Of a DNA stretch of 57,642 bases, positions 42,243 to 45,685 are shown one piece after another. Position numbers and translations under genes: made by a program. This DNA comes from an uncultured Candidatus Saccharibacteria bacterium. GTDB taxonomy: Bacteria; Patescibacteriota; Minisyncoccia; Portnoybacterales; UBA2143. Every line of letters begins with the position of its first letter. The stretch's first letter is position 1. A model generated the notes under the pieces. It saw only the letters and a list, made by a program, of their open reading frames with translations. It was not told the DNA's origin and did no database searches. The DNA is taken from NCBI GenBank assembly GCA_964594155.1, contig CAZQLH010000004.1, positions 1 to 57,642 on the forward strand, written 5' to 3'.

Positions 42243-42524
42243 TAGAATAAGAAATTAAACAATTGCAATTTTGTGCAGTTGTCCCAAATTATTTTTATTG
42301 AGAGTTTGATCCTAGCTCAGGATGAACGCTGGCGACGTGGATAAGGCATGCAAGTCGAACGACCCCGAGTTTATCGAGGGGTAGTGGCGAACGGGTTAGT
42401 AATACGTAGGGATCTACCCTGAAGTCTGGAATAACTTGGAGAAATCTAAGTTAATACCAGATAGTCCCGCAAGGGTAAAGTTCCCCGCAATACTGCGGGG
42501 TTGCGCTTCAGGAGGAACCTGCGC

Positions 42525-42564
<40 letters not shown>

Positions 42565-42790
42565 TGACGGGTAGGGGGAGTGAGAGCTTGACCCCCAACA
42601 ATGGGACTTAGACAAGGCCCATACACCTACGGGTGGCAGCAGTCAAGAACCTTCCACAATGGGCGAAAGCCTGATGGAGCGACGTCGCGTGAATGAAGAC
42701 GCTCTTCGGAGTGTAAAATTCTTTTCTAGAGGAACAATTTTGGCTTGCCAAAATGAGCGTACTTTAGGAATAAGGGGCGGCTAACTTCGT

Positions 42791-43710
42791 GCATTGGCGC
42801 GACCTCTGACGGTAACGTCAGAGAGAGAATCTAGTGCTAAGCTCGCACTAGAGAGAAACTCGGCTTATATGCTGGAACCCATTTATTTGATATTTAAAAT
42901 AAATGGCAATCAGCAGGGAAGTCGTTTATAATGGAAGTATGAGATCGTTAAATACAAATCTAATTTCTAAAACCCAACAAAAGATTATTATTGGTAATAT
43001 CTTAGGAGATGGGTCTTTAGAATTTAATGGATTTCGTGGAACACGATTACAGATAAAACAATCATTGAGATATAAAGAATATGTATTTTGGTTGTATGAT
43101 CAATTAAAAGACCTTTGTATTTCTAGTCCAAAACAGAGAAAAGACAATGATCAATGGTACTTTAGTACAAAATATTTAGCAGAATTAACTATTCTTCATA
43201 GAATTTTCTATCCTAATGGTAAAAAAGTAATTCCTAAAGATATTTCGAAATTACTTATTTCACCACTAACTTTGGCAATTTGGTATATGGACGATGGTTC
43301 ATTATACTGGCGGCCAAAAGAACATAATGGTTTTAGATTATGTACTAATTGTTTTTCTGTAAAAGACACACATCGATTAAAAAATGTTTTATATGATAAT
43401 TTTGGCATAGAATCTACAGTTCAAAGAACTTCATGTAGAGGCAAAAATTATCCTAGAATATATATTGGAGTAGCAGGTAGAAATAAATTTTTGAAAGTTA
43501 TCAAATCATATATATTAAACTGTTTTTCTCATAAATTACCTCCATTATAAATTGACCCTTCAGAGACTGATCCCTTTTATGGGAGAGATAATGGGTTCTG
43601 GATAATCCAGGTTTAAACCATTATCACACGCCGAGCCCCCGTTAAATATTTTTATATTTAATTGGGTGGTGATATAGTCCAGTAGAATTTTATATTATTG
43701 AATTCTATTA
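42791..43710 (+). mobile_element. Group I intron after 16S U516 (920 nt)
   Basis: P1 CGUGC/GCGCG with U-G pair, P10 with GCCA, AATCAGCAGGG, CAGAGACT and GATATAGTCC; exons rejoin as TTCGT|GCCAG. Confidence 0.9.
42939..43550 (+). CDS. Intron-encoded LAGLIDADG endonuclease (two motifs)
   Basis: IIGNILGDGSL and LAIWYMDDGS; ATG 42939 is 6 nt after a TATAAT. Confidence 0.9.
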   Translation: MRSLNTNLISKTQQKIIIGNILGDGSLEFNGFRGTRLQIKQSLRYKEYVFWLYDQLKDLCISSPKQRKDNDQWYFSTKYLAELTILHRIFYPNGKKVIPKDISKLLISPLTLAIWYMDDGSLYWRPKEHNGFRLCTNCFSVKDTHRLKNVLYDNFGIESTVQRTSCRGKNYPRIYIGVAGRNKFLKVIKSYILNCFSHKLPPL

Positions 43711-44083
43711 GCCAGAAGCCTCGGTAATACGAAGGCCCCAAGCGTTATCCGGATTTATTGGGCGTAAAGCGTGTGTAGGCGGTTTTAATAGTGATTGGTT
43801 AAATTCCGAAGCTCAACTTCGGAGCTGCTAGTCAAACGTTAAAACTAGAGCAAGTAAGAGGCTAATGGAACTTACCAAGTAGGGGTGAAATCCGTTGATA
43901 TGGTAGGGAACACCAAAGGCGAAGGCAATTAGCTGGTACTTAGCTGACGCTGAGACACGAAAGCGTAGGTAGCGAACGGGATTAGATACCCCGGTAGTCT
44001 ACGCCGTAAACGATGTCAACTAGCCGTTTGGAGTATCGACCCTCTGAGTGGCGAAGCTAACGCGTTAAGTTGACCGCCTGGGA

Positions 44084-44115
<32 letters not shown>

Positions 44116-44582
44116 AGACGGGGACTTGCACAAGCGGTGGATCATGTGGTTTAATTCGACATTACGCGAGGAACCTTACCAGGACTAGACATCCTGATGA
44201 CCGTTTACCGAAAGGTAGACTTTCTTTAGACATCAGGGTCAGGTGGTGCACGGTTGCCGTCAGCATGTGCCTTGAGGTGCTCCCTTAAATGGGTTAACAT
44301 GCGCAACCCTCGCCCTGTGTTACAAGTGTCACAGGGAACTGCCTCCGGACAGGAGGAGGAAGGCGAGGACGACGTCAAATCAGCGTGTCCCTAGATGTCC
44401 TGGGCGACACACATGATACAATGGTTAGGACAATGGGTTGCCAAACCGCAAGGTGGAGCCAATCCCATCAAACCTAGCCCCAGTTCGGATTGAGGGCTGC
44501 AACTCGCCCTCATGAAGCCGGAATCGCTAGTAATCGCAGATCAGCCACGCTGCGGTGAATACGTTCTCAAGTCTTGTACTCA

Positions 44583-45404
44583 AAAATAAATGTGCCTGGC
44601 AGCTATTATAATGCTAAATTGTTAAAATCAATTCCTCCAATATTTATTGGAGCGTAGCGAACAGACAGGTCTCGCACCGCGAGGTAGAGACTGAAGGGTC
44701 TTAGTAGCAAAAGACAGCCCTGTCATTAAAAGGATTCTTACGACCTATACGGTGAGTTATAGGGAAGTAAGCATAGTTAATAATCCGATAGGGATGCCCG
44801 GAATAGTATAAATAGTGACCCAGGGAGATCTTTGTGATATAATAGAGTTATGTTATGAAGTCACAAAGAAGTCAGCTGCGTCGTAGTAGCTCTAATTCGT
44901 TAGAGCGAAGGACAAAACCGACGGTCTCTCTAGATTATATTGTTGGTCTTACAGATGGCGAAGGATGTTTTTATGTTTGTATTAGACCGCCATACAATAA
45001 GAATGGCGGAGCAATGATTTTACTTTCGTTTTATATCAAGATGCAAGCAAAAGATAAATTTCTTTTAGAGAAGGTTAAAAATACGCTTGATTGTGGAAAT
45101 GTGTATTTCCAGAATGAAAAGCGTCCAAATCATACTCAATGTTATCGCTATACAGTTGCTTCGCATCGTGATATCTTAGGAAAGGTTATTCCATTTTTTA
45201 AGAAATATCCTTTACAAAGTACGAAAGTAAAAAACTTTAATATTTTTTGTAGTATTGCTGAAATGGTTCGCAATGGCGAACATCATAATCAAAAGGGAAT
45301 TGAAAAGATTAGATTATTAAAATCTAAAATGAATCGTCGGGCTCGCTGAGTGCGGGAAATCCGCTCGCTCAGTGGGGATTCGAAAGAACTCTACTTATCG
45401 AAAT
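44583..45404 (+). mobile_element. Group II intron after 16S A1398 (822 nt)
   Basis: Domain V CGCTGAGTGCGG-GAAA-TCCGCTCGCTCAGTG, DVI-like end in AT, GTGCC near the 5' end, EBS loop CGGTGAGT complementary to the spliced junction ACTCA|CCG. Confidence 0.8.
44855..45349 (+). CDS. Single-motif LAGLIDADG endonuclease in group II intron domain IV
   Basis: YIVGLTDGEGCF, F.I.M...D..LL..VK..L.CG.V, VIPFF.KYPL...K...F..F; stop codon lies inside domain V. Confidence 0.9.
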   Translation: MKSQRSQLRRSSSNSLERRTKPTVSLDYIVGLTDGEGCFYVCIRPPYNKNGGAMILLSFYIKMQAKDKFLLEKVKNTLDCGNVYFQNEKRPNHTQCYRYTVASHRDILGKVIPFFKKYPLQSTKVKNFNIFCSIAEMVRNGEHHNQKGIEKIRLLKSKMNRRAR

Positions 45405-45685
45405 CCGCCCGTCATATTAGGGAAGTCGGTAGTACCCGAAGTCTCTTCATTAGAAGGGCCTAAGGTAAGATCGGTGACCAGAATAAAGTCGTAACAAGGC
45501 ATGCGTAGCGGAAGCTGTGCATGGATCACCTCCTTTCTATATATTTAATATATATGGGGTGTCGATACAGGTTGAGATATAGAATTCTTATCTCAACTCG
45601 TGGGTATTGGTCTTGGAGCCCTAAATTAAGACCTGATAGTTCTAATGAACTTCATTTGGGACAACTACACGAGATTGCAACAGGA

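Follow-up and report, generated by a model that had tools for sequence, protein, structure and literature searches.

A LAGLIDADG-encoding group II intron in the decoding-centre region of the 16S rRNA gene of an uncultured Candidatus Saccharibacteria bacterium

The ribosomal RNA (rRNA) operon on contig CAZQLH010000004.1 of an uncultured Candidatus Saccharibacteria bacterium (GenBank assembly GCA_964594155.1) raises the question of what the 822-nt insertion at 44583-45404 of its 16S rRNA gene is, whether it is removed from the RNA and what guides its removal. All 57,642 nt of this stretch of DNA were analysed and are referred to as the window. An Rfam scan of the window matched the 16S rRNA gene in two pieces (42302-42817 and 43577-44638) and likewise detected the 23S and 5S rRNA genes and a group I intron within the 23S rRNA gene. 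At its boundaries, the 16S rRNA gene reads ...GTACTCA(44582) / AAAATAAATGTGCC...TATCGAAAT(45404) / CCGCCCGTCA. The insertion was placed by means of the E. coli 1391-1407 primer sequence and its numbering; aligned to this motif, the flanks are ...GGTGAATACGTTCTCAAGTCTTGTACTCA / 822 nt / CCGCCCGTCATA. The insertion thus follows A1398 of the E. coli 16S rRNA, in the decoding-centre region, and its boundaries cannot slide. An earlier note, made from the letters of this DNA, had described a group II intron without reverse transcriptase (RT) but with a LAGLIDADG open reading frame (ORF). The analysis reported here indicates that the insertion is very probably a mobile group II intron of a bacterial rRNA '1396-1400' family, with a compact subclass IIC-like ribozyme, a LAGLIDADG gene in domain IV, exact splicing guided by a loop, and DNA homing. 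It is a well-documented member of a family already published in ultra-small bacteria of the Candidate Phyla Radiation (CPR).

Excision was followed in assembled contigs of four metatranscriptome runs from the same study as the DNA. Run X21 yielded a 106-nt contig in which 44582 is followed immediately by 45405, the 822 nt being skipped. The joint has 48 nt on its shorter side, no positional ambiguity and 0 mismatches across 45405-45462, a variable and organism-specific stretch. Exon contigs specific to the organism were present at similar depth (e.g. 44131-44508, with 0 mismatches and a depth of 87), and the contig depth over the intron was zero in all four metatranscriptomes. DNA contigs from runs X1, X2 and X5 of the same study span 44553-45600 without interruption or mismatch, and the 44582/45405 joint was absent from them. 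The intron is therefore removed from the 16S rRNA, and ligation of the exons is exact, at A1398|C1399; the coordinates given in the earlier note were right, and the extra 5' nucleotides that it had counted as part of the intron leave with it. Excised-intron RNA (lariat, circle or linear ends) was sought in eight RNA runs, in which the contig depth over the intron was zero, the sole exception being a low-depth (2.4) contig of a relative that crosses the 3' intron-exon boundary.

The first insertion in the same 16S rRNA gene (~42791-43710, with a LAGLIDADG_2 ORF at 42903-43550) is also spliced in RNA: a contig of run X24 joins 42790 to 43711, skipping 920 nt, although the true joint could be as much as 2 nt downstream. 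The mature 16S rRNA of the host organism thus contains neither ~42791-43710 nor 44583-45404, and pipelines that analyse 16S rRNA from the gene sequence must allow for both insertions. Separately, loose contig ends were observed at 44581 in the DNA runs X1 and X2, where the 16S rRNA gene of another organism matches up to ...GTACTC and continues with GGGTGCCACGCAGTTTTAAAAGC. These contigs seem to represent a distinct insertion at almost the same site of the 16S rRNA gene, one that has hardly any A-rich linker or none.

The intron and its parts are listed below with their coordinates in the window.

44583-45404, + strand: intron, 822 nt; RNA contig joint 44582/45405, DNA contigs uninterrupted, 72/72 anchored relatives at the same 16S site
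44578-44582, + strand: intron-binding site 1 (IBS1), ACUCA, the last 5 nt of the 5' exon (16S 1394-1398); complements the loop UGAGU, and the pair at exon position 1396 covaries
44583-44589, + strand: 5' terminal linker AAAAUAA, 7 nt, from the family alignment
44590-44594, + strand: degenerate GUGYG homologue AUGUG, directly before stem I(i), in the same place as the GUGCG of RT-encoding IIC-like introns
44595-44824, + strand: domain I, with closing stem I(i) 44595-44599 / 44820-44824; supported by covariation
44744-44763, + strand: exon-binding hairpin with covarying stem; loop 44750-44757 comprises CGG (delta-like) and UGAGU (exon-binding site 1, EBS1)
44830-44868, + strand: domain II hairpin with family-wide flanks GAGAUCU...AGAAGUC; the ORF start codon ATG (44855) lies in its loop
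44855-45349, + strand: ORF of a single-motif LAGLIDADG homing endonuclease, 164 aa; Pfam LAGLIDADG_1 (PF00961), E = 1.9e-21
44869-44913, + strand: junction J2/3 and domain III, with the D3 hairpin at 44880-44913; Rfam group-II-D1D4-1 match at 44834-44913
45343-45375, + strand: domain V, with CGC triad at 45344-45346 and 2-nt bulge UC; supported by covariation
45380-45404, + strand: domain VI, with bulged A45397 (position -8), 3' tail AAU and a covarying basal helix
45405-45407, + strand: CCG, the first 3 nt of the 3' exon (16S 1399-1401), proposed partner of the loop CGG; the loop register shifts in relatives

Relatives were collected for comparison. The endonuclease protein has 839 homologues. 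A locus search with the single protein found no relatives, but an alignment-based scan with one genome per species confirmed 159 encoding loci, the best 80 of which were kept. Among these best 80 of 159 loci, 72 had both 16S anchors, and all 72 lay at this 16S site. An alignment of the 5' exon end and domain I (A2) comprised 51 sequences, i.e. the window and 50 family members, whereas domain V/VI statistics were obtained with 58 distinct relatives and exon complements were analysed in 78 introns.

The consensus structure of domain I showed compensatory changes in 31 of its 39 pairs in the 51-sequence alignment. Together with the five EBS1-IBS1 pairs (44 pairs in all), 96.1% of cells were paired, compared with 72.7% in column shuffles, and 32 pairs were changed on both sides. 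When the domain I partners were slid by 1-3 columns, 31-45% of cells were paired, and the observed covariation score was matched by none of 500 shuffles. Domain V carries the CGC triad in 58/58 relatives; 13 of its 14 pairs were 100% paired, with compensatory changes such as CGC-UGAG/CUCA-GUG in the window, CGC-GUAG/CUAC-GUG in most relatives and CGC-CGAG/CUCG-GUG in one (L073). Domain VI consists of a 4-bp basal helix (98% paired, covarying), the bulged A45397, a 3-bp upper helix and a 3-nt tail, and the 3' end AU fits the AY found at group II 3' ends. Rfam group-II-D1D4-1 matched 44834-44913 at 38.8 bits (gathering score 35), a model against which RT-encoding introns score 53-76 bits. Once the ORF-only stretch (~44914-45342) is excluded, the ribozyme RNA amounts to ~390 nt. 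The identification in the earlier note, a group II intron that lacks an RT and carries a LAGLIDADG ORF, is thus supported by the Rfam match, the covariation of domains I, V and VI, Pfam and the ORF table. Its CGC-triad domain V does hold the ORF stop, with TGA (45347-45349) directly following the triad, and the covariation across relatives that it had named as a check is present in the helices of domains I, V and VI and in EBS1-IBS1. Self-splicing of the ribozyme is predicted. Two other identities, a group I intron and an RNase III intervening sequence, were rejected on the basis of the Rfam matches, the contig across the ligated junction and the domain V/VI statistics.

For comparison with subclass IIC, RT-encoding introns were gathered with AGAAGUCAGCAGAAGUCAUAGUAC, a motif of the Oceanobacillus (O. 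iheyensis) IIC intron, on which the presumed class C status of these comparison introns also rests. At least 120 loci, from Bacillota, Bacteroidota and further phyla, contained it. One of these introns (L128, from Lutispora) encodes a protein with RVT_1 and GIIM domains and, like another copy (L117), matches Rfam D1D4-3, D1D4-1 and RF00029; a third (L146) matches D1D4-3 and D1D4-1. The order of elements in RT-encoding IIC-like introns is GUGCG-CCCGG-CA...ACCCGGGGAGAUCU-[D2]-AGAAGUCAGCAGAAGUCAUAGUAC-[D3]-GGAAGGAC, and that in the window is AUGUG-CCUGG-CA...ACCCAGGGAGAUCU-[D2]-AGAAGUCAGCUGCGUCGUAGUAGC-[D3]-CGAAGGAC, where D2 and D3 denote domains II and III. Motifs common to the window family and the RT-encoding introns are ACCYNGGGAGAUCU, AGAAGUCAGCNGNNUCRUAGUA and GGAAGGAC. 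The element therefore appears to be a compact group II intron resembling subclass IIC, and the motifs and the CGC triad support the assignment that Liu et al. give to a sister family (PMC13190283).

The 5' end departs from this pattern. A canonical GUGYG is absent from the splice site; the intron begins with AAAAU, and the GUGYG homologue follows 7 nt downstream. The linker was present in 51/51 aligned members and 7 nt long in 48 of them, with A at its last two positions in 50/51 and 51/51 sequences, respectively. The first intron nucleotide is free (C 14, U 14, A 13, G 9). The homologue has the consensus A/G-N-G-Y-G, with A (46), G (4) or C (1) at position 1 and a free position 2. No covarying pairing partner of the linker was found within domain I. 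The earlier note had read a 9-nt extension followed by GTGCC; an extension exists, and GTGCC does occur at 44592, but homology sets the register differently, at 7 nt followed by AUGUG at 44590. The A-rich linker thus parts the splice site from the degenerate AUGUG, and the first intron nucleotide is not the canonical G. A fixed 7-nt linker together with an invariant branch-site A was not found in the literature examined.

Recognition of the exons was traced to a single loop of domain I. In the hairpin CCTATA-CGGTGAGT-TATAGG (44744-44763), the loop reads in reverse complement as ACTCACCG, which is the ligated junction, and the RNA loop CGGUGAGU is the exact complement of ACUCA|CCG, as the earlier note had observed. 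The junction 8-mer occurs once in the 57.6-kb window, with 0.34 copies expected, and at least one copy was found in 27 of 100 shuffles; hence, the match alone is not significant, and its significance derives from its position and from covariation in relatives. In A2, the pair between exon position 1396 and the loop is U-A in 46 sequences, A-U in four and U-G in one, such that exon ACACA goes with loop UGUGU in 4/4 cases and exon ACUCA with UGAGU or UGGGU in 47/47. Further ACACA/UGUGU cases were seen in other phyla. The EBS1 half of the loop is proven comparatively.

For the other half, the GG of the loop is invariant in A2, and all 78 introns analysed have a contiguous complement spanning the junction, which typically covers 5 nt of the 5' exon and 2-4 nt of the 3' exon, in three insertion registers. 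In copies from Planctomycetota and Armatimonadota (L217, L218 and L223), the linker and the tail AAU at the intron ends place the insertion after 1396; the linker is CAAUUAA in L218 and L223, whereas L217 follows the linker rule less closely, with a 6-nt linker and a 4-nt tail. Their loop, GUGUGUAC or a close variant, is complementary to GUACA|CAC, with GUG opposite CAC. In a clade of 14 CPR loci (L019, L028-L032, L039, L040, L046, L047, L063, L068, L075 and L080), the flanks read ACUCAC...CAU|UCGCCC, and their loop, GCGGUGAG, would complement CUCAC|CGC given a site at 1399. These introns are probably inserted after 1399, the alternative being site 1398 with U1399 in the rRNA. RNA contigs at one of the loci (L032) read ...ACTCAC followed by CGCCCGTCAAC, which fits 1399 but could derive from intron-less relatives. 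Covariation and register shift in relatives support the proposal of the earlier note that one loop is complementary to both exons, and they favour an arrangement in which a group IIA-like delta adjoins EBS1. This part of the proposal held, but the guide loop is not a new device, since it corresponds to the group IIA-type EBS1 with adjoining delta shown for the Clostridium tetani intron C.te.I1 (PMC4024640). A shift of the loop register with the insertion site was not found in the literature examined. The 5' splice site would be chosen by five base pairs between the 5' exon ACUCA and UGAGU, the 3' half of the loop, while CGG would base-pair with the start of the 3' exon in the manner of group IIA delta-delta', lining the exons up for ligation.

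The ORF begins in domain II, crosses domains III and IV and ends in domain V. No RT ORF was found in the ORF table of the intron. The protein contains the single motif LDYIVGLTDGEGCF (GLTDGEG), whose residues D34, G35, E36 and G37 are invariant in 28 homologues. It aligns to either half of the I-OnuI-family enzymes (best match 4lq0, 1.2e-42) and is therefore expected to form a homodimer. Its conserved N- and C-terminal 'peptides' (RSQLRHS... and RTRVVRE...) coincide with the RNA of domains II/III and V. The ORF encodes an intact LAGLIDADG_1 homing endonuclease, for which cleavage of the intron-less allele is predicted. Mobility by DNA homing, as put forward in the earlier note, is a reasonable route, given that the ORF is intact, its catalytic motif conserved and its homologues numerous: as a presumed homodimer, the enzyme would cleave 16S alleles that lack the intron, and the intron would be copied into them during repair. 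The domain II loop contains an extended -10-like sequence, TGATATAAT (44835-44843), 11 nt ahead of the start codon of the endonuclease gene. Some relatives (L001, L004, L007, L009 and L021) have a similar sequence, TGNTATAAT, which is missing from most lineages.

Several points weigh against the account given so far. Rfam D1D4-3 scored 13.1 bits for the window, which is below threshold, and RF00029 (domains V/VI) gave no match in the window even at E <= 10. A domain I nhmmer profile had no match at E <= 1e-3 among 120 RT-encoding IIC-like loci, so that the link to IIC rests on the triad, the junction and core motifs and Rfam D1D4-1. The RNA junction is carried by one 106-nt assembled contig from one run, splicing chemistry and endonuclease activity are predictions from homology and analogy, and the conserved bulged A45397 argues against a preference for hydrolysis. 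The 3' exon is invariant within a site, and the evidence for a delta-like pairing comprises two site shifts, one of which (1399) is itself inferred. Bacterial intervening sequences are known to be cut out to leave fragmented rRNA, and most rRNA reads cannot tell a fragmented from a ligated 16S rRNA; yet excision by host RNases without ligation is extremely improbable here, as the contig runs through the ligated junction with an organism-specific 3' side and no catalytic element of a group II intron is missing from the insert. With regard to the loop, only the EBS1 half might work, with the 3' exon read by a separate EBS3 in the coordination loop, in the style of IIB and IIC introns, and with the CGG-CCG complementarity being incidental or serving an intron-internal delta-delta' pair. 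Liu et al. assign the sister rns-1396 family to IIC and annotate IBS1 and IBS3 in its members (PMC13190283). Moreover, the loop begins with C, U or G, leaving at most two of three pairs conserved, and the invariant 3' exon makes covariation within a site impossible. However, the nucleotides 5' of EBS1 become GUG where the 3' exon starts with CAC (site 1396; L217, L218 and L223) and GCG where it probably starts with CGC (14 loci), and compensatory mutations in C.te.I1 backed an extended delta pairing over EBS3 (PMC4024640). A loop restricted to EBS1 is regarded as quite unlikely, and the reading of both exons by one loop is preferred.

The chemistry of the first step is less settled. By analogy, hydrolysis is somewhat more likely, branching at A45397 would be a realistic but lesser prospect, and any other route is improbable; the phrase 'probably hydrolytic or circle-forming' in the earlier note is likewise analogy and not a finding. 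In the branching reaction, the 2'-OH of the bulged A45397 would attack the phosphate 5' of A44583 to form a lariat whose 2'-5' bond leads to a non-G nucleotide, with the 7-nt linker looped out and the degenerate GUGYG keeping its core contacts. Position -8 is A in 58/58 distinct relatives, and 44 of them show the canonical bulged-A geometry with covarying helices on either side; most of the other 14 (L028, L033 and similar) have an A-rich loop in place of the upper domain VI helix. The fixed length of the linker and its near-invariant 3' AA suggest a defined structure and not slack, and rns-952, a LAGLIDADG-encoding group II intron, forms lariats, as cited in PMC13190283. Against branching, the first intron nucleotide is unconstrained, the published 5'-insertion introns have lost the branch-site A, both of those tested (a fungal rRNA intron and C.te.I1) splice exclusively by hydrolysis (PMC4024640), and IIC introns rarely branch in vitro despite a normal branch site (PMC4748821). 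It is also conceivable, though somewhat unlikely, that the RNA is no longer an autonomous ribozyme and relies for folding and splicing on a host factor, or on its own endonuclease in the role of a maturase. Its small domain I, the lack of a maturase, the non-canonical 5' end and the weak Rfam scores fit such a dependence. Conversely, strong purifying and compensatory selection acts on the catalytic elements in several phyla, and the LAGLIDADG protein of a Leptographium group II intron failed to promote splicing of its host intron (PMC4424553).

Variation in the 3' domains was noted in several relatives. An A-rich domain VI loop, e.g. AAUGUUCCAAAAA, is found in L028, L029, L031, L033, L034, L061, L063, L065, L068, L075 and L078, and in several of these introns a part of the loop, GUUCC, can pair with a GGAAC in the linker between domains V and VI. 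They may represent a lineage without branching. Seven others (L014, L017, L023, L036, L048, L054 and L055) carry one or two extra hairpins (~55-60 nt) between domains V and VI, where the usual linker of group II introns is 2-4 nt long; a subclade with a ~55-60-nt two-hairpin insertion at this place was not found in the literature examined. A copy from a Kaiserbacteria metagenome-assembled genome (MAG; L056) has a longer insert (extracted stretch 1190 nt), in which neither domain V nor domain VI is recognisable at the 3' end. Its 3' exon is altered (CCGCCCGAC), and it may be a decayed copy.

The host range of the family proved to be wide. A pattern search aimed at Thiotrichaceae copies returned none of these but revealed the same intron in other phyla. 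The intron and endonuclease gene were found in MAGs labelled Elusimicrobia, Anaerolineae, Armatimonadota, Planctomycetota (two) and Shapirobacteria, with one Planctomycetota copy lying on a 2.35-Mb Gemmataceae contig. An Omnitrophica MAG (L214) contributed a 5' fragment of 303 nt, cut off by the end of its contig. L205, L206, L217, L218 and L223 all have the endonuclease ORF, unlike the cut-off L214. The family thus extends to Planctomycetota, Armatimonadota, Chloroflexota, Omnitrophica and Elusimicrobia, i.e. at least five further phyla, a distribution not found in the literature examined. It revises the published picture in which LAGLIDADG group II introns of bacteria are restricted to Thiotrichaceae (and CPR), in particular the statement of Liu et al. 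that the rns-1396 family is confined to Thiotrichaceae (PMC13190283). Li et al. proposed that 5' insertions, loss of EBS2 and loss of branching are causally linked. With its fixed-length insertion and invariant branch-site A, the present family is a natural test of this linkage, and a splicing assay on one member would break or extend the correlation. More speculatively, and as a proposal that we consider unlikely in its full form, the family could be a distinct pan-bacterial lineage of IIC-derived, endonuclease-driven introns that, in contrast to all characterised 5'-insertion introns, keep a functional branch site and a fixed 7-nt linker, branch to a non-G 7 nt upstream of a vestigial GUGYG and have a loop that co-slides with the insertion point (1396, 1398 and 1399). 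If this were true, the co-sliding loop would let the element creep along the decoding-centre sequence.

Among known systems, RT-encoding class C introns (e.g. the Lutispora thermophila copy L128 or O.i.I1) resemble the window intron in their CGC triad, compact ribozyme and Rfam D1D4-1 match, and their J1/2, J2/3 and D3 core motifs are near-identical. They differ in having an RT/maturase, a canonical GUGCG at the splice site and strong D1D4-3 and RF00029 matches. Class C introns also insert after transcription terminators, unlike the window intron. All features of the latter have published precedent in the CPR introns 16IS9, the Thiotrichaceae introns rns-1396, fungal 5'-insertion introns and C.te.I1. 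The precedents named in the earlier note, fungal mitochondria and giant sulfur bacteria, were correct, but the list was incomplete, as the CPR family had already been published (PMC11270868).

The closest match is this CPR family. Tsurumaki et al. (2024) described 53 group-II-like 16S insertions in CPR bacteria, termed 16IS9 and all located near position 1400, of which 39 had a LAGLIDADG ORF and none an RT, and proposed DNA homing (PMC11270868). Host group, 16S site, Pfam family of the endonuclease, lack of RT and detection by Rfam group II models all agree with the window intron, and there is no essential difference; in the passages of that paper examined, neither the ribozyme nor its linker, exon-binding loop and domain VI are modelled. 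The Thiotrichaceae rns-1396 introns (Salman et al. 2012; Liu et al. 2026, PMC13190283) share the decoding site of 16S rRNA, the IIC backbone, a 5' terminal linker, which is present in all members, and a single-motif LAGLIDADG ORF in domain IV; they have no EBS2. Their host is gammaproteobacterial and their site is given as 1396, compared with 1398 in the window, and their homology to the window family is deduced from the published description.

Two further systems match the window intron in its 5' end. Fungal mitochondrial rRNA introns of subclass IIB1 (Li et al. 2011, as summarised in PMC4024640 and PMC4424553) likewise splice upstream of GUGYG, reside in rRNA and have lost the RT; several carry LAGLIDADG ORFs, and EBS2 is absent. 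They differ from the window intron in their IIB1 backbone, in 5' insertions of 1-33 nt as opposed to a fixed 7, and in the loss of the branch-site A, splicing being hydrolytic. C.te.I1 of Clostridium tetani (McNeil & Zimmerly 2014, PMC4024640) has its splice site 8 nt upstream of GUGYG, and its 3' exon is read, as proposed for the window intron, by nucleotides that adjoin EBS1 in the same loop, an IIA-like delta extended to up to 4 bp and shown by compensatory mutagenesis. Unlike the window intron, it has a IIB backbone and no ORF, resides in an mRNA, where it undergoes alternative splicing, and lacks a branch-site A, splicing exclusively by hydrolysis.

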